Origin: an uncultured bacterium
GTDB taxonomy: Bacteria; Krumholzibacteriota; Krumholzibacteriia; JACNKJ01
Assembly: GCA_963695095.1 (NCBI GenBank)
Contig: CAVOFT010000001.1
Location: 725,981 to 789,980, forward strand
Reading direction: 5' to 3'
DNA: 64,000 bases
The notes below the pieces were generated by a model that was not told where the DNA came from, did not search any database, and saw nothing but the letters and a program-made list of their open reading frames with translations. This document shows, piece by piece, positions 45,243 through 58,823 of the stretch; position 1 is the stretch's first letter; each line of letters opens with the position of its first letter. A program made the translations under genes and the position numbers.

Positions 45243-45290
45243 GACCCGCGGCCCGGTACGCGAGAGGCGCAGCACACGCCAACGGCGAGG

Positions 45291-45322
45291 GGCCGGCGGG
45301 GAAACCCGCCGGCCTTTTGCTT
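45291..45322 (+). terminator. Rho-independent terminator
   Basis: GGCCGGCGGG-GAAA-CCCGCCGGCC is followed by TTTTGCTT, 49 nt after the subtilase stop. Confidence 0.7.
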
Positions 45323-45369
45323 GCGCGGCCGACCGGCGCCCCGCATTTTTCCGACCCCTGCCGCCCGAG

Positions 45370-46932
45370 GTGCGAACCCTGCGCCATTTCCTGCTGTCCG
45401 GCGTCACCCTCGCCTCGCTCCTCCTGCTCCCGACACGGCCGGCGATCGCCACGGCCTTCGTCCAGGACCCGGCGCCCTCGCCCGCGGACCAGTGCAAGCT
45501 GGACGACATCGCCGCCTCGCCCACGGGGCGCATCGCCGCCGCCGGCTGGGAGCGCACCTTCATGACCGGCGGCTCGCCGGGCACTCCGCTCATCGTCGAG
45601 AAGTCGGCCGCCGCGGGCAGCTGGACGGTGCTCGACAACCCCGACCAGGGCTTCACCTGGCACGACCTCGGCGCGGTGGACTACCTGCCCGGCCATCCCG
45701 ACGAGGATCTCGTGGCGGTGGGCACCTATTACCCGGACATTCTCCTCGCCCACGGCCATGGGCTCCTGCTGCGCTACCGCCGCGCCGCGGGCGCCTGGGA
45801 CATGGGCACCTTCAACGATCCCGGCGCCGAGTTCCACTTCGTCGAGGACGCCGTCTTCGATCCCCTCGATCCGAATCGCCTGCTCATCGCCGGCACGCGT
45901 GGCGTCGACGATGGCGTCGGCTCCTGCTTCCGCTTCACGACGATGGTGGTCGCCTATCGCCTGGACACGATGAGCTACGAGATCCTGCCGACCACGGCCC
46001 TCGGCGGCCTGAGCTCGATCGTGGCCCTGCCGGACGGGCGCTTCCTGGCCGTCGGCATCGCGGCCGGCGACTGCGACTACCTCAACATCCCGATCGTGCT
46101 GCTCATCGACGGCGCGACGAGCACGGTGCTGCCCAACCCGCCGCCCTGGCCGGGCTACCCCGCCTACCGGCTGAACTACGCGCTCACGCTGGCGGACGGC
46201 CGCGTGCTGATGGTGGGCATGGCGACGCCGAACGGGGGCTCGCACTTCGTCACGCTGGGTTACGTCTTCGACCCGGCCACGAATGGCTGGATGGTGACCA
46301 AGCCCCTGGACCCCGACACCAGCACGCACCCGGCGGGCTTCACGAACCAGCTCTGGAGCTTGACGCCTGGGCTGGACGGCCGCATCTACGCGGTGGGGCG
46401 CTATCACTACATCAGCGACATGGGCTACCACTACTATCGGGCGCTCATCGAGAGCTGGGATGGTGCGAACTGGCGCCTGGAGGAGACGCCGGAGGAGTTC
46501 GGCTCGCCATGGAACACCCAGCTCTGGGGCGTCTGCACGCATCCGACGGCGGGTGTCTGGGCGGCCGGCTACTGGGATCCCGCCGAGTACCCGGACCGCT
46601 CGCTGGTGCTGCGGCAGGCCGACCCGCCCACGGGCGCGGTCGACGCGGCGGCCGCGGGCGCGCTCGGCTGCGAGGCCTTCCCCAATCCCTTCCGCGAATC
46701 GACGCGCCTGCGCTTCAGCCTGCGCACGGAGGGGCCGGCGGAGCTGGCCATCTTCGATGTCTCGGGGCGTCGCCTGCGCGCGCTCGCCGCGGGCGCGCTA
46801 TCTGCCGGCGAGCATGCCTTCACCTGGGATGGCCGCGATGATGAGGGCCGCGCGCTGAGCGCGGGCGTCTACCTGGCGCGGCTGGAGGCGGAGGGCGCGA
46901 GCGAGAGCCGCAGTCTGGTCTTGCTGCGCTAG
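45370..46932 (+). CDS. Hypothetical secreted beta-propeller-like protein with T9SS/FlgD-Ig-like C-terminal domain
   Basis: The proposed GTG start gives VRTLRHFLLSGVTLASLLLLPTRPAIATA, which looks like a signal peptide. Beta-strand blocks recur (GRIAAAGW, LVAVGTYY, RLLIAGTRG, GRFLAVGIA, GRVLMVGMA, GRIYAVGRY, GVWAAGYW). The C-terminus is FPNPFRESTRLRFSLRTEGPAELAIFDVSGRRLRAL...GVYLARLEAEGASESRSLVLLR. Confidence 0.7.
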   Translation: MRTLRHFLLSGVTLASLLLLPTRPAIATAFVQDPAPSPADQCKLDDIAASPTGRIAAAGWERTFMTGGSPGTPLIVEKSAAAGSWTVLDNPDQGFTWHDLGAVDYLPGHPDEDLVAVGTYYPDILLAHGHGLLLRYRRAAGAWDMGTFNDPGAEFHFVEDAVFDPLDPNRLLIAGTRGVDDGVGSCFRFTTMVVAYRLDTMSYEILPTTALGGLSSIVALPDGRFLAVGIAAGDCDYLNIPIVLLIDGATSTVLPNPPPWPGYPAYRLNYALTLADGRVLMVGMATPNGGSHFVTLGYVFDPATNGWMVTKPLDPDTSTHPAGFTNQLWSLTPGLDGRIYAVGRYHYISDMGYHYYRALIESWDGANWRLEETPEEFGSPWNTQLWGVCTHPTAGVWAAGYWDPAEYPDRSLVLRQADPPTGAVDAAAAGALGCEAFPNPFRESTRLRFSLRTEGPAELAIFDVSGRRLRALAAGALSAGEHAFTWDGRDDEGRALSAGVYLARLEAEGASESRSLVLLR

Positions 46933-47088: not shown

Positions 47089-47826
47089 TCAGGCGCTGCC
47101 CGACTGCTTGGCGGCCTCCAGCGCCATCTCGTGGGCCAGCTCGGGCCCGAGGAAGCGCTCGGCGGCGCTGTGGCCGGCGTAGATCAGCGGCGTGAGGATC
47201 ACCGCCACCGTGAACTTGTAGAGGTACTGCGTCACGGCGATGCTGAGGAACTGCGCGCCCGTCAGCTTGCCCGGCAGGTAGAAGGCGATGCCGAGGATCA
47301 CGATCGTGTCCACAGCCTGCGAGAAGATGGTCGAACCCGTCGCGCGCAGCCAGAGGCGGCCGGGCCCCGTCACCCGCCGCAGGCGGTGGAAGATGAGCAC
47401 GTCGGTGAGCTGGCTGAGGGCGAAGGCGGTGAGCGAGCCGACGATGATCCACAGCGACTGGCCGAAGACCTGCGCGAAGGCCGCGCCCGAAACAGGCGAG
47501 AAATCGGTGGCCGGGATCCGCAACGCGGCGAAGAGCGCGATGAAGGCGTAACTGATCATGCCCACGCCCAGGAAGGTGAGCTGCCGCACGCCGCGCTTGC
47601 CGTAGTACTCGTTCACGAGGTCCGTGGTGAGGAAGACCACCGGCCAGGGGATGACGCCCACGGACATCAGGAAGGGACCGATCTCCAGGAGGCCCAGCTT
47701 GAGCACGAAGTCCGGCGAGCTGAGGTAGAAGAGCTTGCCGCCGATGAGCTCGCCGAGCAGCGCGTTGGTGAGGAAGAAGCCGCCGAGGATGAGGAAGAGC
47801 GTATCGCGGCGGGTCTTCATGGCCAT
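47089..47826 (-). CDS. yhhQ: Queuosine-precursor transporter (YhhQ / DUF165, VUT family)
   Basis: This is an intact 245-aa polytopic membrane ORF. Motifs present are PWPVVFLTTDLVNEYYGKRG, AFALSQLTDVLIFHRLR, LWLRATGSTIFSQAVDT and FTVAVILTPLIY. Confidence 0.8.
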   Translation of the reverse strand: MAMKTRRDTLFLILGGFFLTNALLGELIGGKLFYLSSPDFVLKLGLLEIGPFLMSVGVIPWPVVFLTTDLVNEYYGKRGVRQLTFLGVGMISYAFIALFAALRIPATDFSPVSGAAFAQVFGQSLWIIVGSLTAFALSQLTDVLIFHRLRRVTGPGRLWLRATGSTIFSQAVDTIVILGIAFYLPGKLTGAQFLSIAVTQYLYKFTVAVILTPLIYAGHSAAERFLGPELAHEMALEAAKQSGSA

Positions 47827-47913: not shown

Positions 47914-48963
47914 CTACTGCCCCGGCGTGAAGACGAAGGGCGCCCGGAAGCTCACGCGGCCCGCCGGCACGGCGCCGAAGCTCCAGGCCTTCACCTGCGC
48001 CAGCACGCAGTCGAGCACGGCGGCGCTCCTGAGGCCGTCCTCGAGCACGGCGGCCTCGCTGACGCCGCCGTCGGCCTCCACCGTGAGGCGCAGCACCAGC
48101 TTGCCGCCGAGCGTGGCGTCGCGCTTCAGCGCGTTGTCGTAGCAGTAGCGGATGCCCGGCGCGTAGCGCTGCAGCACGGCGAGCAGGGAGGCGTTGCTGC
48201 GGATCTCGCCGCCGCCCGGCGCGCCCCCCGCCCGGGCGCCCGCTGCCCCAGCGCCTTCTGCGCCCTCGCTGCCCGCGCTCCAGTCGCCGATCTCCACGCT
48301 GAGCCCGGCCGCCAGCAGCACGGGCCCGCCGCCCGCGGGCGCGGCGGCCGCCACGCTGCTCTCGACACTGCCCAGCGCCTCCTGCCCGCGGCCGCGGCGC
48401 AGGCGGCCGCGCGCCGCCCCGGCGGAGGGCGCCGCGGGGGCGTCCCCGGCGGGCAGCGCGGTGGAGAGCTTGGCCAGCGTGGCGTCCAGGGCCTGGGTCG
48501 TCGAGGCGAGAGCCTGCGTCGCCGCCTCGGCCTGGCGGCGTCCGGCCAGGCCCTGATCGGGCGCCACGCGCGGCGCCTGGGCCAGCCGCTCCACCCGCCG
48601 CGGCGCGCGCTCGGGCTCGGGCGCGGGGGTCGGGTCCGGCGGCTGCGGCGCGGCGGCCTCGGCTGCCGGCGCCGCCGCTAGCGGCGAGGCGACCGGCGCG
48701 CTCGCGACCGGCACCGGCGGCTCCGGGCGGCGCTCCTCGAGGATCAGCCGCGCGAGACGCTCGGGCATGGCCTCGAGCGTGGGCGCCTCCTCCACCGGCG
48801 CCGGCGCGAAGAGCAGCACCGCGAGGACGAGGAGGCCCAGCGCGGCGGCCATGGCGAAGGAGCGCCGCGTGCGCGCATCCATCTCGCCGATCAGGATGAC
48901 GTGCCAGGGCAGCCGATAGCTGCGCGCGATGGGGCTGAGCGGCCGGCCGAGGGCGAAGGCCAT
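47914..48963 (-). CDS. TonB-like energy-transducer-type protein with AgmX/PglI-type C-terminal domain
   Basis: The ATG overlaps the ExbD stop. There is one N-terminal TM segment (FAMAAALGLLVLAVLLFA) and a Pro/Ala-rich linker. The C-terminus is LLAVLQRYAPGIRYCYDNALKRDATLGGKLVLRLTVEADGGVSEAAVLEDGLRSAAVLDCVLAQVKAWSFGAVPAGRVSFRAPFVF, which follows the CY...G.V...C...W.F pattern. Confidence 0.7.
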   Translation of the reverse strand: MAFALGRPLSPIARSYRLPWHVILIGEMDARTRRSFAMAAALGLLVLAVLLFAPAPVEEAPTLEAMPERLARLILEERRPEPPVPVASAPVASPLAAAPAAEAAAPQPPDPTPAPEPERAPRRVERLAQAPRVAPDQGLAGRRQAEAATQALASTTQALDATLAKLSTALPAGDAPAAPSAGAARGRLRRGRGQEALGSVESSVAAAAPAGGGPVLLAAGLSVEIGDWSAGSEGAEGAGAAGARAGGAPGGGEIRSNASLLAVLQRYAPGIRYCYDNALKRDATLGGKLVLRLTVEADGGVSEAAVLEDGLRSAAVLDCVLAQVKAWSFGAVPAGRVSFRAPFVFTPGQ

Positions 48964-49469
48964 CAGGAGTCCTTGATCACGGCCAGGGCGATGTCGCCGT
49001 AGCCGCTCTGGTTGCAGGTGTACATGACGCGCTGCAGGATGGCGAACTCGATGTCGCGATCGCCCTGGATCGCCACGCGCGGCCGGGCGCTCTCGCCCGT
49101 GCGCCGCGCGGCCAGGGCCTCGCTCTTCGCGCGCTCGGTCTGGAGGCGCTCGCCCAGGCCCGCGATCCAGAGCGACTCGCCCGCCAGACTCGCGCCGACC
49201 GAGGCCACCATCTCGTCGCCGACGAGGATGGCGTCGTCGAAGACCGCCACCACGAGCGCGGGCCGGGCGGCGTCCTGGCTGCGCGACGCGGGCAGATCCA
49301 CGCCCGGCACGGGGGTCAGCGCCTCGCCGTCCACCACGAAGCTCTTGAGCAGGAAGAGCAGCAGCGAGGTGAAGATGTCCATCATCGAGGTCATGCGCAG
49401 CACGGCCTTGCGGTTCTCCCGCCGCAGGCGGCTGAAGCCGCCCCGACTGCGCCGCGTCGAAGCCTTCAT
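48963..49469 (-). CDS. ExbD/TolR-family (MotB-like stator) protein, copy 2
   Basis: The 168-aa ORF has an N-terminal TM segment (MTSMMDIFTSLLLFLL) and the periplasmic block VAIQGDRDIEFAILQRVMYTCNQSGY. Confidence 0.8.
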   Translation of the reverse strand: MKASTRRSRGGFSRLRRENRKAVLRMTSMMDIFTSLLLFLLKSFVVDGEALTPVPGVDLPASRSQDAARPALVVAVFDDAILVGDEMVASVGASLAGESLWIAGLGERLQTERAKSEALAARRTGESARPRVAIQGDRDIEFAILQRVMYTCNQSGYGDIALAVIKDS

Positions 49470-49930
49470 CGCGAGCCTCCCTCGCCGCTCGCGGCGGCCA
49501 GGGCGATCCGGGGCCAGCCGGCCTCGCGGGCGATGTCCATGGTCGCCACGATGCGCTCGTAGCGCGTGTGCGGCGCCGAGACGATGATGATGTCCTTCTC
49601 GGCCGGATGCGTAGCGGCCAGCTCGCCGAGCAATGCGCCCAGGCGCGCGACGCCGGTCGGGCCATCGTCGCCCGCCGCGGGCGCGAGGCCCCGGCCCGCC
49701 AGGCGCCAGCCCCGCTCCTCCAGGCGCAGGGACAGCTCGAGGCCGGCCTCGTCGGTCGCCGGCGCGCTCGCATCGTCCGCGGGCATCTGCATGTCGATCA
49801 CGGTCACCTGCAGGAAGACGGCCGAGATCAGCAGCATCGGGATCAGCGCCACGAAGATGTTCATCAGCGGCAGCATCTCCAGCTCCTCGGCGACGAGCTG
49901 CCGGAAGCTGCCGCGCGCGCGGCGGCCCAT
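49466..49930 (-). CDS. ExbD/TolR-family protein, copy 1
   Basis: The 154-aa ORF contains LPLMNIFVALIPMLLISAVF and IIIVSAPHTRYERIVATMDIAREAGW. It overlaps its downstream neighbour by 4 nt. Confidence 0.8.
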   Translation of the reverse strand: MGRRARGSFRQLVAEELEMLPLMNIFVALIPMLLISAVFLQVTVIDMQMPADDASAPATDEAGLELSLRLEERGWRLAGRGLAPAAGDDGPTGVARLGALLGELAATHPAEKDIIIVSAPHTRYERIVATMDIAREAGWPRIALAAASGEGGSR

Positions 49931-49931
49931 G

Positions 49932-50579
49932 CTAGATCTCCTCCGTGCCGCCCGTGAGCAGGCTGATCAGGCGCACGCTGAGTGCGTCCACGTTGTCGAC
50001 GATGCCCTCCACCTTGCTCACCAGGAAGCCGTGGATGAGCAGGGCCGGCACGGCGACGATGAGGCCGAAGGCCGTCGTGTTCAGCGCCTGGCTGATGCCC
50101 GCGGCGAGAAAGGCCGAGCGCTGGGAGGGATCGGCGGCGTCCACGGCGTTGAAGGCGGTGGTCAGGCCGAAGATGGTGCCCAGCAGGCCGAGCAGGGTGG
50201 CCGTGTTGGCCAGCATGTTCAGGTAGGAGAGCCGGCGGCCCAGCGGGGGCAGCACCACGGTGGCGGCGCTGTCGGCCGCCGCCTGCAGGGTCTCTTCGCT
50301 CGCCGCGGCCGCGCCCTCGCGCTGCAGGATGGCCTTGGCAACGCGCGTGACCGGGGACTCCACCTTCTGGCAGAGCGCGACGGCCCCGCCCTTGTCGCCG
50401 CGGCGCACCAGGCGCAGCAGGTCGCGGCTCATCTTCGTGGAGTTGAGCTGGGCCGCGCGCTGGATCACCCAGAGTCGCTCCAGGCTGAGGGCGAAGACCA
50501 GCAGGCCGGTGATCAGGATCACGATCATGAAGGGGCCGCCGTTCTTGAAGAAGGCGGCGAAGGTGGCGACGGGGTTCAT
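49932..50579 (-). CDS. MotA/TolQ/ExbB-family proton-channel protein
   Basis: The 215-aa ORF has three TM segments. It contains LANTATLLGLLGTIFGLTTAF and ISQALNTTAFGLIVAVPALLIHGFL. Confidence 0.85.
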   Translation of the reverse strand: MNPVATFAAFFKNGGPFMIVILITGLLVFALSLERLWVIQRAAQLNSTKMSRDLLRLVRRGDKGGAVALCQKVESPVTRVAKAILQREGAAAASEETLQAAADSAATVVLPPLGRRLSYLNMLANTATLLGLLGTIFGLTTAFNAVDAADPSQRSAFLAAGISQALNTTAFGLIVAVPALLIHGFLVSKVEGIVDNVDALSVRLISLLTGGTEEI

Positions 50580-50582
50580 GCC

Positions 50583-50936
50583 TCACTCCTCGACTACGGG
50601 GTTGGGTCCGGGATCCTGCGCAGCCGGCCGGCTCGTCGGCAGGGCCGCGGCGCGCAGCGCAAGCTGTGGGGGCGGCGCGGGCTCGAGCAGGCCGGCGGCG
50701 GCGATGAGTTGCCAGCCCAGGCGCAGCTCGACGCGGGCCGGCTCGCGGGCGTTGATGAAGAGCACTTCCGGGCCCTTCGCCACGCCCTCGATGGTGATGG
50801 CCTCCAGGCTGCGTTCGGCGCCGCCGGCGGTCGGCTGGGGCTCCGCGGCTGCCGCCGCCCGTTCGGTCGCCGCTGCTGCCGGAGCGAGCGCGAGGGCCAG
50901 CAGGAGCGCGATCCGCAGCGCCTCAGTTCGCATCAT
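50583..50936 (-). CDS. Small secreted protein (117 aa), uncharacterised
   Basis: The signal peptide is MMRTEALRIALLLALALAPAAAA. The ORF ends 3 nt before the ExbB start and overlaps the upstream gene end. Confidence 0.55.
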   Translation of the reverse strand: MMRTEALRIALLLALALAPAAAATERAAAAAEPQPTAGGAERSLEAITIEGVAKGPEVLFINAREPARVELRLGWQLIAAAGLLEPAPPPQLALRAAALPTSRPAAQDPGPNPVVEE

Positions 50937-51846
50937 GCTTCGCCTCCGGGTCGGGTGCCGGGGCCGGCGGGCTGAGCGCGAGATGGCCCGCGGCCGGCGC
51001 GCCGGCCAGGGCGCGGCCCAGGGCATCGGGATCCACGCCGCCGCCGGGCGCGAGCCGGCGGTAGGCGAGGAAGTGCGCGCGGGCCGCCGCCTCGTCGAAG
51101 CGATAGTTCAGCGCCACGATGGCCAGGTTGTAGTGGGCGCCCGCGCAGCGCGGATCGAGGGCGAGGGCGCGCTCGAACTCGGCGGCGGCCGCCTCGGGCC
51201 GGCCCGCATAGAGGAGGCCGATGCCCAGGTTGTTCGCCGCGGCGGCCGAGCGGGGCGCCGCCTCGGCGGCCGCGCGCAGGTGGGGCTCGGCGGCAAAGGG
51301 ATTTTCTCCGCGCAGGAGAAGGAAGCCCAGCGCGGCGGCCGTGCCCGACGCCTCCGGATCCAGTGCGCGGCTCAGGCGGGCCGATTCCTCCAGCTCGCCG
51401 AGCGCGTCGAGCTGCAGCGCGAGGGCGGCCGTCAAGGGGCCTCTGGGCTCGGCGCCGCCAGCCAGCGCCGCGCGCAGCAGCGCGGCCCCTGCGGCGAACT
51501 CGCCCGCCGCGTAGTGCAGCTTCGCCCGCAGGCTCAGCGAGGGAGCGTCGAGGGGATCCGCCGCCAGGGCGGCGTCCAGCGCAGCGCCCGCCGCCGGCAG
51601 GGAATCGACGGCCGCCAGCAGCGCGGCCAGGCGATAGGGCCAGTAGGGCTCCTGGGGCGCCCGGGCCGCCCAGGCGCGCAGCGAGTCCCCCTCGGCCGCG
51701 AGCTGCGCGCCGGCGTCTGCGGGCCGCGTGGCCGGCGCCTGGAGCGCACCGCCTCCCGCGCAGCCGGCCAGGACCGCGACGGCGAGCGGTGCCAGCGCCC
51801 GGGGGCGCGCGCAGCGGCTTGCAATCTGGAGCAGGCGGGACGGCAT
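50923..51846 (-). CDS. TPR-repeat lipoprotein
   Basis: The start at 51846 gives MPSRLLQIASRCARPRALAPLAVAVLAGCAGG, which contains a lipobox. TPR-like repeats are present (NNLGIGLLYAGRPEAAAAEFERALALDPRCAGAHYNLAIVAL). Confidence 0.7.
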   Translation of the reverse strand: MPSRLLQIASRCARPRALAPLAVAVLAGCAGGGALQAPATRPADAGAQLAAEGDSLRAWAARAPQEPYWPYRLAALLAAVDSLPAAGAALDAALAADPLDAPSLSLRAKLHYAAGEFAAGAALLRAALAGGAEPRGPLTAALALQLDALGELEESARLSRALDPEASGTAAALGFLLLRGENPFAAEPHLRAAAEAAPRSAAAANNLGIGLLYAGRPEAAAAEFERALALDPRCAGAHYNLAIVALNYRFDEAAARAHFLAYRRLAPGGGVDPDALGRALAGAPAAGHLALSPPAPAPDPEAKHDAN

Positions 51847-51926
51847 GGCGCTCCTCGTGCTTTCCCACGCCGCCGGTCGGGGTTGCCGCGGCGCGCTGAA
51901 ATCACTGCTCGCAAGTCGCATACCCA

Positions 51927-54900
51927 TCAAGGACGTAGCGGCGGATCAGAGGCCGCCACCAAGGGGAATTCCAGCTCGGGCAGGTGCAGGAAGCGCCGAG
52001 CAATCCGCGGCCACAACTCGTTTTTGGTGATTGCGACCCAGTTGTCCGGGTCTTCATCCGTGGGATCGGCCAGGCGCACGAGCTCGCTCCAGGTCTGCTC
52101 GCCGCGGGCGTGGAGTTCCCAGGCGCGATCCTCGAGCACCTCGAGATAGGCGAGACGGTCGTCGCCGGCGAGGGCCGCGGGCGCCGGGGCGGCGAGCAGC
52201 GCGTCGCCCAGCTCGTAGAGCGACTGGCCGAGCAGGTGCGCTGCCGCCCGCGACCAGCGCCGACTGCCGCGGGCGAGCACGTGCTGGCTCTGCTCGGCGA
52301 GGGCAGCGAGCAGGGCCTGCTTGCGCTCGAGGCCGGCCTCCAGCGGCGCGGCCAGGGCGACCGCCGCGAAGTCCCGGTGAAGAGCCAGGCAGGCGAGGTA
52401 GTCGACGTGGGCGAGCAGGTCCGCATCGGCGAGAGCGGGCTGCCGGGCGGCGCCGTCGAGATAGGCGGCGAGGGGACCGCCCGCCGCCCGGGCGTCGGCG
52501 AGGGGGGCGTCGCCCCGGGCCGCGAGCGCGGCGAGGGCGCGCGCGTGGAGAATCTCCGTGAGCGCCGCCGGGTGCGCGGGGAAGCGCGCGAGGAACTCGT
52601 CGCGATAGCGCTCGGCATCGGCGGCTCCCGCCGCGCCCGCCGCGAGATCGATGGCATGGAGCAGGGCAGCGGGTGCCTGGGCCAGCTCCTCGGCGCTGCG
52701 CGCGCCGGCGGCATAGGCGGCCAGGGCGGCGGCGGCCCGCCGCGGTGCGACCTTCGCGAAGAGCGCGGCTATCTGCAGCCGGGCATCGCCGGCGAGGCGG
52801 CTGTCCGGATGGCCTTCGGCCAGCGCGGTGAAGGCGCCGGCCGCCGCCTCGCGCTCGCCGCAGGCGGCGAAGCCCAATCCCGCGCGGTAGTGGGCCTCGT
52901 CTGCAAGCGCAAAGGCGGGCCAGGCGGCGGCGAGATCGGCGAAGCGGCGCGCGCCGGCGCAGTCGCTGCTGTCGGCGGCCATGGCCGCTGCGGCGGCGAG
53001 GAAGTGGCTCTCGGGCACGCGCAGGGCGAGGGCCGCGCCGAGGCTGTCGGCGCTCGCGGCGCCCGTGCCGCCCGCCGCACGCGCTGCGAGCGCGAGAGCC
53101 TCCTCGTAGCGCGAGGCGGCCGCGGCGGCCTCGCCCGCGCGGCTCAGGGCGTCTCCGCTGCGGGCGGCGGCCAGGGGGGCGGCCGCGTGGGCGGGCCAGC
53201 GCCGGGCGAAGGCCGCGAAGCCGGCCGCCGCTTCCCGGTGCCGAGCATCGCCGTCGCGCAGGCTGGACAGGCGCCAGAGCAGGGCCGGCGCGCGGGCGTC
53301 ATTCGGCTGGCGATCGAGATAGCGATCGCCGGCGGCGAGGAAGCGCGCGCGGGCGGCGGGGAGGGCATCGCCCGCGGCGGCGCCCTGCAGGGCATCGAGC
53401 AGGGCCAGGGCCTGCCAGTCGGCGAGGGCGGCCAGGTCCGCGTCCTCGGCGGCGCAGGCATAGTGGGCGAGGGCGGCCTCGCCGTCGCCCAGCTGCGCGG
53501 CCGCCTCGCCCGCTGCGAGTTGCCGGCGGGAGCGCTCGGCATCCTCGGGCCAGTGGGCGAGCAGCAGTTCGAGGCTCTCGCGCGCCCGGTGCCAGTCGCC
53601 GGCCGCCCCCCGCGCGCGGGCGCGAGCGAGGGCCTGGCTGGCCCGCTCGATCAGGCAGGCGCGCGCGAAGTCGCCGGCCGCCTGGGCAAGACTGTCCTCG
53701 GCCGCGCTGCGCGCTGCCTGCCAGCCGCTGCCCGGACGGAAGTGCAGAGCGAGCGTGCCCAGCTCGGCATCGACGCGCGTGGAGTCGCCGACGGCCCGGC
53801 GGTCGGCGAGCAGCAGCTGCGCCTGGGCGAGGGTGCCCGGCGCCAGCGGCCAGCGGGCAAGCCAGAGCGAGTCGGCGGCGGCCGCTTCCGCATGGAAAGC
53901 GTAGCTGCGCAGCAGGTCCGCCACATCCGTGAGCAGCGTCGGCGCGTAGGGCCGCTCGCCCTCACCCGCGAAGAAGCCCGCCCAGGCGGGCGCGCCGCCC
54001 GCCCGGGCCAGACATTCGGCGAGATGCGCCCGGGCCTCCCGAGCCAGCGACGCGCCGGCGCCGGCCGCGGCCTCGGCTTCCAGGTCGATGAGTCGGCGAT
54101 AGAGCGCTGCGGCCTCGAGGAAGCGATCCTCGCCGTAGCGAAGCCAGCCCAGCGTGTAGAGCGCCACGCGCGTCAGTTCGGGGCTGCCCGTGGCGGCCAC
54201 GGCGTCGTAGTGCAGGGCCGCCCGCGCGCGGTCGCCGCGGGCGAGGGCGCGCTCGGCGAGCCGAAGACGCGCCTGCGGCAGTTCGGGTGCCTCCGGGTGC
54301 TCGGCCAGCAGCGACTCGAGCTGGGCCTCGCCCTCGGGATCGCCCTGCTCGTCGAGCAGCATGCCGAGATTGAAGCGCACGGCGCCGCGGCCGGGATAGT
54401 CCGCGTCCTCGGCGAGGATGGCGCGGTAGAGCGCGCAAGCCGGCTCGAGATCCAGGAAGGGCGCCAGGGCGCGCTCGGCGGCGGCGTCGGCCGCGCCCTC
54501 CGCGCCGAGGAAGGCGGCCATGCGCGCGGCGAAGGCCTCGCGCGCCTCATTCAAGCGCAACTCGGCGAGATGGAAGCGCAGCTCCCCGCGCGCCGTCGAC
54601 TGCGGGTGGGCGGCGAGGAAGGCTTCGCAGCGCAGGCGCGCCTCGGCGTGGGCCGCGCTGGCAAGGGCGCCGCCAGCGGGAGTCTCGCTGCGCTGCAGCG
54701 CCGCCTCCGCGAGCTGGTAGTCGAGCAGCTCCTGCTCGGCGTCCAGGCGCTTCAAGCGCTCGGCGATGAGCCAGGCTGCTGCGCGCCCCTTTTGCGCGGC
54801 GAGGCGGGCGGCAGCGCTTGCCGCCTCGGCATGGGCAGCGGCCAGCGCGGCGCTCAGCGCCTCGCCCTGGGGATCGCCGGCGGCCAGGCAAGCGGCCAGC

Positions 54901-56543
54901 CTCGCCTCGATGTCCAGAGCGCCCGCTGCCTGCGCGCCGAGCGCAGCGGCGGCCAGGGCGGGCCAGCCCGAGAGCCGCGCGCGGCCCGCACCCAGGGTCG
55001 CCGCCAGTTCGCCCGGCAGCCAGGCCGCGTAGTCGCGGCCATAGCCAGCCAGCTCGGCGGCGAGAGCGCCGTCGGCGGCCAGCACGCTGTCGGCATCGAG
55101 CGCTCTCCGCGCGCGGCGAGCCCGGGGCCCCTCCAGCCGCAGATGAACGAGCGCAGCCTGCGCCTCGGCCTGAAGCGCGGCGCGGCGGACGAGGCGCGCG
55201 GCGCGGGCGAGCAGCGCGTCGCGATAGGCGGCGATGAAATCGGCGAGCCCCGCCTCGGCCCTGCCCGCGGCGGCGCTCAGGCTGTCGACCGGCAGGCCCG
55301 TCGCGGCGAGCGCCGCCCGCAGGGCGGCCAGGCGCGCGGCCTCGTCCTCGAGATGCCGGCGGCGCGCGGCGCGGTCCGCTTCATGGGCGCTGAGGGCCGC
55401 GGCCGCCTGGGCGGCGGCCCAGCGGGTCGCAGCCAGCGCGTCGTCGGCGGCGGCCAGGCTGTCGTGGAAGGCCGGCGCCAGGACGAGCGCCGGGCCGCGC
55501 GCCGGCTCGAGCTGGAGCAGGGCGCCGGCGCTGCGGCCGGCCTCGCCGAGGGCGAGGCGGCGATCGGCGGCGGCCTCGGCGATGGCCGCCTCGAGAGCAG
55601 CGCGCGCTGCGGCGCTGATCACGAGGCCGCCGGGCCGCGCCAGTGCGAGCAGGGAATCGGCGGCGACGGCGGGATCGAGCGCGGCCAGCTGCGCGCGCTC
55701 GGTGCGGCGCGCCGCTTCGAGCGCGACGAGCAGGGACCAGGCCGCTTCGCCATCTCGCGCATCGAGCAGGCGACGTGCGGCGAGCAGGGCGGGCTCGCCG
55801 CCGGCGGCCGGCTCTGCCGGCAACGCGCGGCGGGCGGCGTCGGCCACCAGGGCGCGCTCCCAGGCCTGGGCGGGCGCCTGCGCTGCGAGGGCGCGCCAGT
55901 GGGAGAGCGCATCCTCGCCGGTGGCTTCGGCCAGCCGGGCCGCGAGCTGCAGGCGCAGCAGGGTGGGCAGCGCCCCATCCGCTGCGGCCAGGAGCGCTCG
56001 CGCCCGGGCCAGCGCCTCCGTCCGCGCTTCCGCTGGCGCGCCGGCGGCGCGGCTCAGGGCCCGCTCGATGGCGAGGGCGGCCAGGAGCGGCGGGTCGCCG
56101 GGCTGCCAGTCCTCGCTGCGCTCGGCGAGCAGGGCCAGCGCGCGCCGGGCCGAAGCGGCCTCGCCCGCGGGGCGGGCAGCCAGGGCTGCGAGCGCGGCGC
56201 CGTCACCGGCCTCGGCGGCAGCGAGCGCTGCGAGAAGCGAGGCCCGCTCGGCGTCCGCCCTGCCCAGCAGCGCGGCATCGATGGTCGCCAGCGGCAGGAG
56301 CGCCACTGCCGGCGCGCTCAGTCCCCAGAGGCCGAGACTGCGGCCGAGCCCGAGGGCGGCCGCAGTAGCGGGATCCAGCGGCTGGGGCAGGGGCGCGAGG
56401 CGAGCCCGGCCGCCGGCAGCGGGCGCCGCAGTCCCCGCCTCGGCCTCGGCGGCGCGCGCCGGCTCCGCCAGCGGGGCCAGGCCGGGCAGGCCCAGCGCGA
56501 GGGCGGCCAGCAGCGGGATCGGGAGCAGTCGACGCACGCCCAC
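51927..56543 (-). CDS. Giant (1538 aa) secreted alanine-rich TPR-like repeat protein
   Basis: The GTG start at 56543 comes 1 nt after the upstream stop. The signal peptide is MGVRRLLPIPLLAALALGLPGLAPLAEPARA. TPR-like helical pairs occur throughout (for example AEAQLESLLAEHPEAPELPQARLRLAERALARGDRARAALHYDAV and HYRAGLGFAACGEREAAAGAFTALAEGHPDSRLAGDARLQIA). The antisense strand is also fully open (ORF 51984..56570) but translates to R/G/E-rich sequence that does not look protein-like. Confidence 0.7.
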   Translation of the reverse strand: MGVRRLLPIPLLAALALGLPGLAPLAEPARAAEAEAGTAAPAAGGRARLAPLPQPLDPATAAALGLGRSLGLWGLSAPAVALLPLATIDAALLGRADAERASLLAALAAAEAGDGAALAALAARPAGEAASARRALALLAERSEDWQPGDPPLLAALAIERALSRAAGAPAEARTEALARARALLAAADGALPTLLRLQLAARLAEATGEDALSHWRALAAQAPAQAWERALVADAARRALPAEPAAGGEPALLAARRLLDARDGEAAWSLLVALEAARRTERAQLAALDPAVAADSLLALARPGGLVISAAARAALEAAIAEAAADRRLALGEAGRSAGALLQLEPARGPALVLAPAFHDSLAAADDALAATRWAAAQAAAALSAHEADRAARRRHLEDEAARLAALRAALAATGLPVDSLSAAAGRAEAGLADFIAAYRDALLARAARLVRRAALQAEAQAALVHLRLEGPRARRARRALDADSVLAADGALAAELAGYGRDYAAWLPGELAATLGAGRARLSGWPALAAAALGAQAAGALDIEARLAACLAAGDPQGEALSAALAAAHAEAASAAARLAAQKGRAAAWLIAERLKRLDAEQELLDYQLAEAALQRSETPAGGALASAAHAEARLRCEAFLAAHPQSTARGELRFHLAELRLNEAREAFAARMAAFLGAEGAADAAAERALAPFLDLEPACALYRAILAEDADYPGRGAVRFNLGMLLDEQGDPEGEAQLESLLAEHPEAPELPQARLRLAERALARGDRARAALHYDAVAATGSPELTRVALYTLGWLRYGEDRFLEAAALYRRLIDLEAEAAAGAGASLAREARAHLAECLARAGGAPAWAGFFAGEGERPYAPTLLTDVADLLRSYAFHAEAAAADSLWLARWPLAPGTLAQAQLLLADRRAVGDSTRVDAELGTLALHFRPGSGWQAARSAAEDSLAQAAGDFARACLIERASQALARARARGAAGDWHRARESLELLLAHWPEDAERSRRQLAAGEAAAQLGDGEAALAHYACAAEDADLAALADWQALALLDALQGAAAGDALPAARARFLAAGDRYLDRQPNDARAPALLWRLSSLRDGDARHREAAAGFAAFARRWPAHAAAPLAAARSGDALSRAGEAAAAASRYEEALALAARAAGGTGAASADSLGAALALRVPESHFLAAAAAMAADSSDCAGARRFADLAAAWPAFALADEAHYRAGLGFAACGEREAAAGAFTALAEGHPDSRLAGDARLQIAALFAKVAPRRAAAALAAYAAGARSAEELAQAPAALLHAIDLAAGAAGAADAERYRDEFLARFPAHPAALTEILHARALAALAARGDAPLADARAAGGPLAAYLDGAARQPALADADLLAHVDYLACLALHRDFAAVALAAPLEAGLERKQALLAALAEQSQHVLARGSRRWSRAAAHLLGQSLYELGDALLAAPAPAALAGDDRLAYLEVLEDRAWELHARGEQTWSELVRLADPTDEDPDNWVAITKNELWPRIARRFLHLPELEFPLVAASDPPLRP

Positions 56544-56544
56544 C

Positions 56545-57312
56545 TCAGTCCTGCCAGATCGTCGCCGTGATACCCGACATGTCGGCGGCCGAGTGCAGGC
56601 CGGACAGGTCGAGCTGGAGCAGGGTCAGTCGATCGCGCGGCGCCTCGGCGAGCACCTCGAGCAGCCCGCTGCCGCCGAAGCTGAACTCGAGCCGGTGCAG
56701 GCGCGGCTCCACGTACTCGTGGAGCACCTGCACGAGTCCGCCGCGGCGCAGGGCCGCGCGCTGGCCGGCATCGAGGGCCACCTGCCAGCTCCCGCCGTCC
56801 TCGTCGCGGATGGCCAGGCCCGGCGGCTCGAAGCCCGCCGGCAGGCCCTTGAGCAGGATGATGAGGGCGGTCTCCTGCTCGCCGCGCAGCAGGGCGTCGA
56901 GATCGCGCAGGCGCTGGCCCTGGGCGTCGAGCTGGCGATCCATGAGATCGAGCCGATCGGCGAGCCGGGCGAGATCGGCGATCTGGGTGGCGCCGGCCGG
57001 GCCGCTCCCGAGCAGGGCGCTCTCGGCCTGCACGCTGTCGCGCGCCGCCGCGATCTCGCCGAGGATGCGCTGCAGGAAGAGCTCGCGCTCGCTGAGCGCC
57101 TGGGCCTCGCCGTCGAGGGGCAGCGCGCGCTGGCGCAGCAGGTCGAGACGGCCGCGCAGGAAGTCGCGGTTGGCGTGGAGGAACCGCAAGTACGGCGTGT
57201 CACTGCCTTTGCTATCGGTGCGCTCGACGCGCACCGGCGCGGCCTCCTCGGCGCGCAGGGGCGCGGCCCCGGCAACGAGGATGAGCAGGGCGACGAGTCG
57301 GGCCAGGCGCAT
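56545..57312 (-). CDS. Secreted coiled-coil protein, uncharacterised
   Basis: The signal peptide is MRLARLVALLILVAGAAPLRAEE. A heptad-like central region is present (LFLQRILGEIAAARDSVQAE...LDLMDRQLDAQGQRLRDLDALL). It is tightly coupled to both neighbours. Confidence 0.6.
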   Translation of the reverse strand: MRLARLVALLILVAGAAPLRAEEAAPVRVERTDSKGSDTPYLRFLHANRDFLRGRLDLLRQRALPLDGEAQALSERELFLQRILGEIAAARDSVQAESALLGSGPAGATQIADLARLADRLDLMDRQLDAQGQRLRDLDALLRGEQETALIILLKGLPAGFEPPGLAIRDEDGGSWQVALDAGQRAALRRGGLVQVLHEYVEPRLHRLEFSFGGSGLLEVLAEAPRDRLTLLQLDLSGLHSAADMSGITATIWQD

Positions 57313-57314
57313 CG

Positions 57315-57887
57315 CTATCCCCTCCAGGTGCGGACGCGCTTGCCCGTGGCGGCATCGAGCAGCACGTAGAGCGACGGCGCGCCCGGCGCGCTGTAGACGA
57401 GGGCCCAGGTGCTGAGATCGGGCCGCTGGAGATGCAGGACCCCCCGCAGGAGCAGCAGGCTGCTGAGCCGGCCGCCGTGCTCCGCGCAGTAGGCGCGGCC
57501 GCCCGCGGCATCGCCGGCCGCGCGGGCGGCGTCCGAGTCCAGCCAGTCCGCAGCCAGGGGCGGCGCCGCGAACTCGAACTCCAGGTCGCGGGCCAGAGTG
57601 ATGCGGCCGCCGGCCAGGGAGTAGGCGCGACTGCGGCCCCGCGTTTCGGAGTGGAAGAGATAACCCCAGCGCGGCGCGGCGCCCAGGCTGTCCGGGTCGG
57701 CATCGTTCTCCACGTAGACGAGCTGCGCGTCGGGCGCCCAGCTCCGCGCCGCAGCTTCGGCCAGGGCCAGCTCGGCGCGGGCGGACACGGCCGGCGCTTC
57801 CGCGCCGAGGGCGGGAGCGGCGAGCGCCGCCAGGGCAACGAGCATCAAGGCCGGCAGGGCCGGCCGGGGCAGGCGTGTGGACGGCAT
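57315..57887 (-). CDS. Secreted protein, uncharacterised (PepSY-like pattern, weak)
   Basis: The signal peptide is LPALMLVALAALAAPALGAEA. AELALAEAAARSWAPDAQLVYVEN...RWGYLFHS and ALVYSAPGAPSLYVLLDAATGKRV are present. Confidence 0.55.
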   Translation of the reverse strand: MPSTRLPRPALPALMLVALAALAAPALGAEAPAVSARAELALAEAAARSWAPDAQLVYVENDADPDSLGAAPRWGYLFHSETRGRSRAYSLAGGRITLARDLEFEFAAPPLAADWLDSDAARAAGDAAGGRAYCAEHGGRLSSLLLLRGVLHLQRPDLSTWALVYSAPGAPSLYVLLDAATGKRVRTWRG

Positions 57888-57896
57888 GGCGGTCTC

Positions 57897-58823
57897 CTAG
57901 AAGAGCAGGCTGCTGCCGAGGCTGAACTCGACATTGTTGTTGTCCCGCCGCGCGCTGGCGGCGCCGGAGGCGAAGCGGTAGTTGCGGAATTCCCAGCGCA
58001 TGGCCATGCGCTTGCTGAAGAAGAGCAGGCTGCCCGCGCCCAGGTTGACGCTGGACTCGGTGGCGCCGCGCAGGATGCTGCTGCCCAGACCGCCGGTGAG
58101 GAAGGGCTCCATCTGCCGGCCGGGCAGGAGCTTCAGGTTGAGGTTGAACGAGTAGTAGAGCATGTGGAACTGCTCCTCCTCGAGAGCGAGGTTGAACAGG
58201 CTCTCCACGATCTCGGCCGGCCGCGCGACGCGCGTCCAGGCCAGGCCGCCCTCGATCTCCAGGTGGTCCAGCAGCTGGTAGCCGAGGCTGCCGCCGAGCA
58301 CGAGCGAGTTGCTCTTGCGATCGAAGGCATAGGCGCCGGTGTAGGCGCGCAGGCTGTAGCTGCCGACGCGGGAGAAGAGGCGGGGATTGGGGCGGAACTC
58401 CAGGCCCGAGAGATCATCGAACTCCTCGCAGAGGTCCCTGTGCACCCAGCCCGTGCGCTCATCGTCGAGGCGCAGGTTGATCCAGTCGCCGCGCTTGGCG
58501 ACAACCTTGAACGCCGCGCCGGCGCCGCCCGTGGCCACGATCGCGAACTCGGCCCCCGGCCCGCTGCGCAGCAGCTGCTCGCCGTCCCCCTTGAGCCGCA
58601 CGGACTTCTCCCGCAGCACGTGCGGGCCGTTCAGCGGCGTGGACCAGAGCGGCGCCGCGCTGGAGTCGGCGGCCGCGGGGGCCGGCATGGGCAGCGGAGC
58701 GGAGGCCAGCTGCCCGCGCGCGGGCGTCGCCCAGAGCGCGCTCAGCGCGAGAAGGAGGGTGAAGGGGCCGCTTGGACCTCGCTGCAGGAATCGGGCGGGC
58801 ACGCTGTCTCCTTTGCTGCTCAT
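57897..58823 (-). CDS. Bacterial SH3 domain fused to an outer-membrane beta-barrel domain
   Basis: A signal peptide is present. LRSGPGAEFAIVATGGAGAAFKVVAKRGDWINLRLDDERTGWVHRDL is SH3b-like. Alternating-hydrophobic beta-strands follow, ending in NNNVEFSLGSSLLF (terminal Phe). Confidence 0.65.
   Translation of the reverse strand: MSSKGDSVPARFLQRGPSGPFTLLLALSALWATPARGQLASAPLPMPAPAAADSSAAPLWSTPLNGPHVLREKSVRLKGDGEQLLRSGPGAEFAIVATGGAGAAFKVVAKRGDWINLRLDDERTGWVHRDLCEEFDDLSGLEFRPNPRLFSRVGSYSLRAYTGAYAFDRKSNSLVLGGSLGYQLLDHLEIEGGLAWTRVARPAEIVESLFNLALEEEQFHMLYYSFNLNLKLLPGRQMEPFLTGGLGSSILRGATESSVNLGAGSLLFFSKRMAMRWEFRNYRFASGAASARRDNNNVEFSLGSSLLF

Follow-up and report, generated by a model that had tools for sequence, protein, structure and literature searches.

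A syntenic 13-gene block in Krumholzibacteriota, Latescibacterota and Eisenbacteria that probably contains a lineage-specific Agl/Glt-type core complex

The Agl-Glt and Agl-Nfs machines of Myxococcus xanthus evolved from an ancestral core complex, an envelope-spanning apparatus driven by the proton motive force. This core complex was defined as a single-locus gene cluster that runs gltD, gltE, a small extra gene, aglR, aglQ, aglS and gltG, and it was reported without a known function from Beta- and Gammaproteobacteria, Geobacter and Fibrobacter succinogenes, the one additional gene being absent from Myxococcales (Luciano et al. 2011, PLoS Genet 7:e1002268; PMC3169522). In Methylibium (Mpe_A1225-A1231), the cluster encodes GltD (941 amino acids, aa), GltE (243 aa), the extra gene, AglR (217 aa), AglQ (170 aa), AglS (163 aa) and GltG (371 aa), and the genome also has a GltC of 634 aa, while F. 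succinogenes has GltC (746 aa), GltD (1292 aa), AglR (212 aa), an unlisted gene, AglS (164 aa) and GltG (308 aa) (PMC3169522, Table S3). Here we describe a related locus in a 64,000-nucleotide stretch of DNA from an uncultured bacterium (contig CAVOFT010000001.1), which we refer to as the window. Its minus strand carries seven consecutive open reading frames (ORFs), a to g, at positions 47914-56543, and their products of 1538, 307, 117, 215, 154, 168 and 349 aa come in the same order as the Methylibium core and are similar in size. We consider it likely, with a probability of about 0.7, that genes a to g encode the half of a lineage-specific Agl/Glt core complex that lies in the inner membrane and the periplasm, and that they belong to a 13-gene apparatus for the energised movement or exposure of a surface component. 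An earlier note on this DNA had presented the seven genes as its best candidate for an undescribed system, but the core complex had been defined in 2011 already, with Fibrobacter among its hosts.

All seven ORFs are present on the minus strand, and domain scans returned the products that had been listed for them. Gene a (51927-56543) encodes a protein of 1538 aa with 31.6% alanine, a signal peptide and a predicted helical-repeat (TPR-like) scaffold, and gene b (50923-51846) a 307-aa TPR lipoprotein with the lipobox LAGC in the position of GltE. Gene c (50583-50936) encodes a fast-evolving 117-aa protein with a signal peptide and fills the slot of the “additional gene” of the published core. 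It is followed by d (49932-50579), a 215-aa channel protein of the ExbB/TolQ/MotA family that we assign to the AglR type (PF01618, MotA_ExbB, 87.5 bits), and by two ExbD/TolR-type subunits, e (ExbD1; 49466-49930; 154 aa; PF02472, 55.5 bits) and f (ExbD2; 48963-49469; 168 aa; PF02472, 49 bits). The last gene, g (47914-48963), encodes a 349-aa TonB-like transducer of the GltG type (AgmX/PglI model NF033768, 72.7 bits). The genes had been described as translationally coupled, and the junctions are indeed tight apart from the 80-nucleotide gap between a and b, with 3 nucleotides between c and d, 1 nucleotide between d and e, a 4-nucleotide overlap of e and f and a 1-nucleotide overlap of f and g; only the b/c junction differs from that description, as these genes overlap by 14 nucleotides (11 when counted from the second ATG). 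A scan for promoters and terminators found nothing above chance. On the 3' side, g is followed by a queuosine-precursor transporter gene (47089-47826, minus strand; Vut_1, 163 bits), and since this gene is not kept beside the cluster in relatives, we place the 3' boundary at g.

The channel protein d shows a clear affinity to the ExbBs of Glt-like clusters. The ExbB encoded in a Glt cluster of Bacteriovoracaceae aligns with it at 160 bits (42% identity) and that of Chitinispirillaceae at 155 bits, compared with 44-47 bits for E. coli TolQ and ExbB. In a neighbour-joining tree built with such proxy sequences, it sits with the ExbBs of Glt-like clusters from Bdellovibrionota and Fibrobacterota and away from TolQ/ExbB, in line with the reading of the motor in the earlier note. 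The protein d and the Glt-like ExbBs have in common the motif LANxATLLGLLGTIFGL, which replaces the GLFGTVWGIM...PGIAEAL of TolQ/ExbB, as well as two further elements, AADPSQ[RK] and N[TAC]T[ASG][FL]GL, of which the Gemmatimonadaceae sequence lacks the former. Together, these sequence comparisons support the assignment of d as a putative AglR-type rather than TolQ- or ExbB-type channel. When one genome per GTDB species was scanned with the two ExbB motifs ADP[SA]QRS[AS]F and TL[LV]GLLGTI[FA], we obtained at least 599 matches and at least 529 relatives, and the nearest ones beyond the direct orthologues belonged to Bacteriovoracia (42% identity), Gemmatimonadaceae (46%) and Chitinispirillaceae (42-43%). 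A search with ExbB of 1.84 billion representative proteins gave 57 proteins at E <=1e-30 and 4211 at E <=1e-10, which form a continuum; the names of the cluster representatives were not informative. ORFs at 3516-6173 of the window are ExbB/ExbD-like in size and were rejected, as they contain no such domains.

The three clusters that served for comparison each have their own surroundings. The Bacteriovoracaceae locus (L111) is a Glt-like cluster with an ExbB, two ExbDs and TPR proteins of 942 and 244 aa; it also encodes a 676-aa FHA protein (GltG model NF033760, 72.6 bits; AgmX, 55.7 bits), a 476-aa protein matching GltC (NF033756, 93 bits) and two barrels, one OmpA-like and one that passes the TIGR04565 cut-off with 64.4 bits, with the GltG and GltC scores lying well under the whole-protein cut-offs of these equivalog models. 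In Chitinispirillaceae (L113:13075-16136), an ExbB-ExbD-ExbD-AgmX cluster is directly followed by a Wza-like gene (Poly_export and SLBB domains) and a Wzc-like gene (GNVR and P-loop). The Gemmatimonadaceae cluster (L109:5326-18969) encodes a 1171-aa TPR protein rich in YbgF repeats, an AglR-type ExbB, a pair of ExbDs and a TonB-like protein with an AgmX domain. Behind it come genes for a small protein that has this domain as well, for a LemA/MamQ-like protein and for a TonB-dependent receptor of the SusC/RagA type.

One alternative for the window is an analogue of the Tol-Pal system, in which the motor and a TolA-like g would energise outer-membrane tethering or constriction at division, a CpoB-like a would coordinate peptidoglycan synthesis, and u3, a barrel protein encoded upstream of a, would be the Pal/OmpA-like link between outer membrane and peptidoglycan. 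The motor itself offers something to this alternative, as the best NCBIfam match of d is TolQ; this match reaches only 60 bits against a cut-off of 221, and the TolR model gives the window proteins 21 bits against a cut-off of 127. Together with the grouping of d among Glt-like ExbBs, these scores argue against a Tol motor, and on the evidence given here and below we regard the Tol-Pal analogue as improbable.

The two ExbD proteins are clearly distinct paralogues throughout the aligned orthologues, both with PF02472, and they differ at the site of the proton-binding aspartate of TolR/ExbD. ExbD1 (e) has asparagine there (N23, within PLMNIF; PLMN[LIV]F in the family), and this asparagine is found in 12 of the 13 aligned orthologues, the remaining one having serine, and in Chitinispirillaceae as well. 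ExbD2 (f) retains the transmembrane aspartate (MMDIF). This implies, at the level of sequence, a putative ExbD1/ExbD2 heterodimer with a single protonatable site. The Bacteriovoracaceae pair keeps the aspartate in both subunits, and the M. xanthus motor, for which AglQ and AglS are both described with this residue, likewise differs from the window system, where it occurs in ExbD2 only.

The transducer g was compared with TonB, TolA and GltG. Its C-terminal domain passes the AgmX/PglI model NF033768 (72.7 bits, cut-off 40), fails the tonB_Cterm model TIGR01352 (18.9 bits, cut-off 27.1) and has no TonB_C match in the Pfam scan, which confirms the idea that this end of the protein is of the AgmX/PglI type rather than a classic TonB C-terminus. 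The CY...C pattern of the domain (C274, Y275, C319) is invariant in 26 homologues, and the GltG model NF033760 matches with 51 bits over its last 86 positions, which correspond to this domain. The protein begins with a short cytoplasmic N-terminus of about 30 residues, followed by a transmembrane helix at about 30-52, a conserved PERxARLILE motif, a linker rich in proline, alanine and glycine and finally the C-terminal domain at 253-349. In an AlphaFold2 model based on the 26-sequence alignment, the linker has low confidence apart from one conserved and confident helix (137-169), and the C-terminal domain has a pLDDT (per-residue confidence) above 90. A Foldseek search of the PDB with this domain returned as its top matches the TonB C-terminal domain 6sly (E 9e-4), the FusB C-terminal domain 7zc8 and the TolA C-terminal domain 2x9a; 6sly is also the match that Cambillau and Mignot gave for the C-terminal domain of GltJ. 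The profile of g matches the TonB-like protein of Chitinispirillaceae with 99.6% probability, and that protein in turn reaches 94 bits with the AgmX model and 93 bits with the GltG model. The model and the profile matches thus support a GltG/AgmX-type C-terminal domain with a predicted TonB/TolA fold. When the 96-aa AgmX domain was used by itself in a profile search, all matches were short fragments of the same lineages and none came from Myxococcota, a tblastn search of plasmids with this domain gave no matches, and a PDB sequence search with g was uninformative.

The fold of g is also what a Tol or Ton system would have. The domain matches the TolA C-terminal domains 3qdp and 1tol in addition to 2x9a, which is consistent with the Tol-Pal analogue. 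If this were an ordinary Ton system, uptake through receptors encoded elsewhere would be energised by ExbB and ExbD with a variant of TonB, and the TPR proteins would be accessory. The TonB fold, the weak tonB_Cterm match of 18.9 bits and the annotation of homologues as TonB in their source records all fit such a system, as does the SusC/RagA receptor about 3.5 kb downstream of the related AglR-type/AgmX cluster in Gemmatimonadaceae (L109). This locus is the exception to the claim that neither TolB/Pal nor a TonB-dependent receptor accompanies these genes, which otherwise holds in the scanned ORFs of the window and in 2.8 Mb of related loci: no receptor was identified among the large ORFs of the window, and a SusC query found none in the window or in the 194 other related loci (2.8 Mb). 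In addition, the barrels that are linked to the cluster are small and have no plug, d is not of the ExbB type, and the C-terminal domain of g passes the AgmX/PglI threshold while failing those of TonB_C. An ordinary Ton system is therefore very improbable.

Three variant loci (L002:8447-10939, L024:1860-4355 and L031:7693-10288) point to a functional connection between the motor and g. They keep the rest of the block, and their motor is of the TolQ/ExbB type, with an ExbB of about 30% identity that carries the TolQ/ExbB motif GLLGTVWGIMHAF in two loci and GLFGTVVGIIRAF in the third. The ExbDs were examined in one of the variants, L002, where both have the aspartate. The TonB-like proteins of the variants have a different N-terminus, with a membrane helix containing S-x3-H as in TonB and TolA, while their AgmX domain is still 51-59% identical. 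As motor and anchor have been exchanged together, we take this as evolutionary evidence that d, e and f energise g. The use of a TolQ/R-like motor with an S-x3-H anchor by some lineages in the same apparatus is also in keeping with the Tol-Pal analogue.

The scaffold a has no TPR match in the Pfam scan, and its TPR label is based on a match to the YbgF/CpoB-type model TIGR02795 (53 bits, below cut-off) and on profile matches to TPR proteins of Chitinispirillaceae. In hhalign comparisons, residues 634-1047 of a match the C-terminus of the upstream, 1197-aa TPR gene of Chitinispirillaceae (98.6%), and residues 1066-1481 align with the beginning of the downstream TPR gene of 996 aa (99.1%). These two genes are adjacent and colinear with a, so that a looks like a fusion or a long form of this gene pair, judging from the alignments. 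They occupy the places that the GltC and GltD homologues have in F. succinogenes, and the match of residues 634-1047 to the gene at the GltC position is suggestive of GltC and nothing firmer. Orthologues of a are 31-35% identical over their full length. The YbgF/CpoB-type repeats, together with an hhalign match to E. coli CpoB (83.6%), are a further point for the Tol-Pal analogue. On the plus strand opposite a, an ORF of 1528 aa (51984-56570) has a third-position GC content equal to that of a; it was rejected as a mirror artefact, given its Gly/Arg-rich translation and homologues that back the minus strand. It is a by-product of alanine-rich, GC-rich coding sequence and could mislead gene callers.

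The lipoprotein b has several Pfam TPR matches, all of them below their cut-offs, and c has no family match in Pfam or NCBIfam, although an ORF of 82-141 aa is present at the position of c in 13 of the 14 related loci examined. At E <=10, no NCBIfam match to GltD, GltC, GltF, GltK, GltA or GltB was found for a, c, u1, u2, u4b or u5, and hhalign found no match of 30% probability or more between b, c or u1-u5 and E. coli TolA, TolB or Pal. The note had seen in the seven genes a mirror of the Myxococcus core, and this stands in so far as the genes are homologous and colinear, with an AglR-type ExbB and a GltG-type C-terminal domain. Support is lacking for a GltC and for the equation of a, b and c with GltD, GltE and GltF, which comes down to position and domain type.

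The unit is also larger than the seven genes proposed at first, which form the 3' part of a tightly packed syntenic block with at least six more genes upstream on the same strand. Directly upstream of a lies u1 (56545-57312), which encodes a secreted protein predicted to form a helical hairpin and, at its C-terminus, an Ig-like beta-sandwich (AlphaFold2, mean pLDDT 81); its position is conserved, and a structure search returned only generic beta-sandwich matches. The secreted 190-aa protein u2 (57315-57887) has no family match in Pfam or NCBIfam, is 46-56% identical in relatives and is always encoded between u3 and u1. The gene u3 (57897-58823) encodes a predicted outer-membrane beta-barrel with an N-terminal periplasmic SH3 domain (SH3_3, 31.3 bits, cut-off 27; OMP_b-brl, 27.9 bits, cut-off 28.7; TIGR04565, 53.4 bits, cut-off 60), and with 52-66% identity in relatives it is the best-conserved protein of the block, ahead of ExbB; its profile matches the TIGR04565 barrel of Bacteriovoracaceae with less than 30% probability. 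A second, smaller predicted outer-membrane barrel, u4b (58831-59601; start codon uncertain), is recognised by a weak OMP_b-brl match of 16.8 bits and an alternating beta-strand pattern, and an ORF that overlaps it (58820-59800) was rejected as lying in the wrong frame. It is followed by u5 (59598-60203), a 201-aa lipoprotein with the lipobox GGGC, and by u6 (60200-61585), which encodes an NHL beta-propeller (37.3 bits) with a C-terminal FlgD-Ig (33 bits; both above cut-off) and type IX secretion system (T9SS)-type sorting domain and is 39-51% identical in relatives. All three of these genes are conserved in 59 of 59 loci. The junctions of u1-u6 are gaps of 1-9 nucleotides or 4-nucleotide overlaps, and from u7, farther upstream, down to g, every junction is at most 30 nucleotides with the exception of the 80-nucleotide gap.

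The order of these genes recurs across genomes. In the loci from two genome scans, tblastn recovered u3-u2-u1-a-b-c-d-e-f-g wherever the contig allows, while a scan anchored on u3 gave u9-u8-u7-u6-u5-u4b-u3 in every one of the 59 loci, out of 78 examined, whose sequence extends 6 kb or more upstream of the barrel gene. A scan that used u3 as its single protein returned one locus only. In three relatives with a TonB-like protein of about 40% identity, the order is the same from the SH3-barrel gene to the TonB-like gene and the genes downstream differ. We thus delimit a syntenic 13-gene block at 47914-61585, with loci from Krumholzibacteriota, Latescibacterota and Eisenbacteria. Because the same order, including that of the seven genes, recurs in dozens of related loci, the arrangement is not due to chance. 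In one metagenome-assembled genome (SRR7614711_binner13_Refined_44), each of two contigs carries a copy of the block (L016 and L025, also L139 and L168), so that either the block has been duplicated, as Glt clusters elsewhere are reported to be, or the bin mixes strains.

The upstream genes bear on the Tol-Pal analogue in both directions. A PD40 propeller segment in u9 matches E. coli TolB at 25-31% identity, and this analogue would also agree with the lack of a canonical TolB or Pal near the cluster. Against it, a TolB query matched the PD40 repeats of u9 only, no Pal was found in the conserved block, neither a Pal/OmpA_C peptidoglycan-binding domain nor a TolB N-terminal domain is present, and a surface propeller with a sorting tail would not be expected in a Tol system.

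Returning to the Agl/Glt reading, we propose a mechanism that follows those of TolQRA, ExbBD-TonB and Agl-Glt, the last as modelled with AlphaFold in an AglR5QS-GltG-GltD assembly (PMC11761067). A pentamer of the ExbB d would house an asymmetric ExbD1/ExbD2 heterodimer with the protonatable aspartate in ExbD2 only, and the flow of protons would set off a change, either conformational or rotary, which the membrane helix of g would take up. With its long linker, g would span the peptidoglycan, and its TonB-fold domain might dock on the scaffold a, together with b and c. The periplasmic proteins u1 and u2 may then connect a to the outer membrane, where the SH3-barrel u3, the barrel u4b and the lipoprotein u5 would form a platform, and this platform would act on, or position, the T9SS-type propeller u6 on the outside of the cell. 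Most likely, the apparatus would use its energy to move or expose a component of the outer membrane or the surface, and would so serve adhesion, surface translocation or the handling of surface polymers.

Several points weigh against this reading. The GltE and GltG equivalog models are reached far below their cut-offs and on generic TPR or C-terminal domains only, with b scoring 28.4 bits on GltE (NF033758, cut-off 225) through its TPR repeats, and the GltC model NF033756 matches no protein of the window. The profile of a matches the GltD-like protein of Bacteriovoracaceae with a probability of only 17.5%, hhalign of b with the 244-aa TPR protein of that locus stays below 30%, and the comparisons of b, c and u1-u5 with the Bacteriovoracaceae Glt proteins gave nothing at 30% or above. 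The AglR-type label of d was tested with proxies from Bdellovibrionota and Fibrobacterota and not with M. xanthus AglR itself. In the domain scans and the model, g has no FHA or other cytoplasmic domain, which leaves it with no visible tie to a cytoplasmic platform, and the T9SS tail of u6 scores 20.8 bits on Por_Secre_tail, just under the cut-off of 23. The synteny also runs on into an apparently unrelated redox module, so that adjacency alone is no proof that the upstream genes belong to the apparatus. Lastly, the proposal builds on gene content, domains, ExbB affinity, the fold of the C-terminal domain of g, colinearity, the 13-gene synteny and the joint replacement of motor and anchor, from which we infer every physical contact and the output for organisms that are uncultured.

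The same core could also serve as a polymer-handling machine similar to Nfs, moving or spreading a surface polysaccharide or coat instead of an adhesin. In M. xanthus, the Agl motor and the Nfs proteins transport the spore-coat polymer (PMC3858216), and the Wza-like and Wzc-like genes directly after the homologous Chitinispirillaceae cluster belong to polysaccharide export. The conserved block of the window lineage holds no gene for polysaccharide synthesis or export, and its conserved surface candidate, u6, is a protein, which together make a function of this kind quite unlikely.

The redox-type module (61616-64000, minus strand) consists of DUF3570, a DUF4266-type lipoprotein (62755-62988, 77 aa, ending in CAC), a TlpA-like thioredoxin with WCVPC (62988 to about 63536) and a PD40/HZS_alpha/haem-c protein of which the window holds only the C-terminus, all on the minus strand. 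In relatives (L117:431-5530 and L195:1-5726), the module opens with ApbE and a further outer-membrane barrel, followed by a protein of about 675 aa with PD40, HZS_alpha and the CLSCHH haem-c motif (CxxCH), which is 63-72% identical in most of them, and then by the thioredoxin, the DUF4266-type lipoprotein and DUF3570. The module matches the flavinylation-associated cluster of ApbE, DUF3570, DUF4266 and thioredoxin genes described by Meheust et al. (2021; PMC8238504), and the DUF3570 protein of the window has no [ST]GA[ST] flavinylation motif. It lies beside the Glt-like genes in all 59 loci, tightly packed and on the same strand, and we treat it as an adjacent unit whose functional link to these genes is putative.

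A bolder idea, which we offer as a long shot, is that the 13-gene block is a complete and unrecognised surface machine of Krumholzibacteriota, Latescibacterota and Eisenbacteria that unites two gliding paradigms. An AglR/GltG motor and a TPR shaft would drive a platform of two barrels and a lipoprotein, which would carry a T9SS-delivered propeller as in Bacteroidota, and the redox module could gate it through the two invariant cysteines of the AgmX domain. If this were true, it would hint at a third way to build a gliding or surface-trafficking apparatus and at an unsuspected surface behaviour in abundant soil and sediment lineages.

The window belongs to a contig of 3.61 Mb and has a G+C content of 70-78%, and its close homologues all come from metagenome bins labelled Krumholzibacteriota, Latescibacterota or Eisenbacteria, with some from Gemmatimonadota. 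With the first three of these as its nearest relatives, the lineage is far from Myxococcota, as the earlier note had stated. Regions of the window at 43629-45242 (+), 45124-46932 (+), 19281-21983 (-) and 15099-17522 (+) encode large secreted proteins with FlgD-Ig/T9SS type A sorting tails, namely the C-terminal end of a subtilase-domain protein (the ORF probably starts farther upstream), a Kelch-like protein and a beta-helix protein, and in addition an 807-aa protein full of bacterial TSP3 repeats. This set indicates that the lineage leans heavily on the T9SS.

What the ancestral Agl/Glt core does in bacteria that do not glide has been an open question since 2011. The loci described here make an Agl/Glt-type core standard equipment in several uncultured phyla of the Fibrobacterota-Chlorobiota-Bacteroidota (FCB) group, where it carries fixed outer-membrane and surface partners that have not been reported for the published proteobacterial cores. 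The block provides a defined and conserved parts list for structural modelling, and the motor-plus-anchor swap and the ExbD without aspartate are two natural experiments on the coupling of motor and transducer.

Among the described systems, Tol-Pal resembles the window in the motor superfamily, in a transducer of the TolA/TonB fold with a long linker and in CpoB-like TPR repeats, whereas the window has no TolB or Pal in the cluster, misses the TolQ and TolR thresholds widely and has two non-identical ExbDs. ExbBD-TonB has a motor of the same family and a C-terminal domain of the same fold, and it differs in that the window does not satisfy the TonB_C model, has no linked plug receptor and, in its main type, lacks the histidine in the anchor helix. 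The core complex of Luciano et al. shares with the window the one-locus order and similar sizes, a related ExbB, a GltG/AgmX-type C-terminal domain and a presence outside Myxococcota. In contrast to it, the window has no recognisable GltC, its a is colinear with two TPR genes of Fibrobacterota, its ExbD1 has no aspartate, six outer-membrane and surface genes are added, the redox neighbour is constant, and the hosts are Krumholzibacteriota, Latescibacterota and Eisenbacteria. In the literature that we searched, we found no description of the 13-gene form, its spread over three phyla or the fused scaffold, nor of the aspartate-less ExbD1, the swap of motor and anchor or the constant redox neighbour.

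The differences from the M. xanthus machines lie at both ends of the apparatus. On the cytoplasmic side, g has none of the FHA, ZnR and GYF domains, and no link to GltI, GltJ, AglZ or MglA is visible, with no GltI- or GltJ-like gene in the block. At the outer membrane, there is no detectable homology between the parts of the two systems apart from the sub-threshold TIGR04565 match, and the surface protein of M. xanthus has a lipid anchor where the window candidate u6 has a T9SS-type tail. Even so, the logic of Agl-Glt and Agl-Nfs is the same, with a 5:2-type motor that contains two TolR-like subunits, a TonB-like transducer and a periplasmic TPR scaffold, and with outer-membrane barrels, a lipoprotein and a propeller-containing surface protein beyond it. 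The outer-membrane module of M. xanthus comprises the barrels GltA/B/H, the lipoprotein GltK and the propeller-containing adhesin CglB, and by analogy, with homology not detected, the predicted outer-membrane layout of the window parallels this module.

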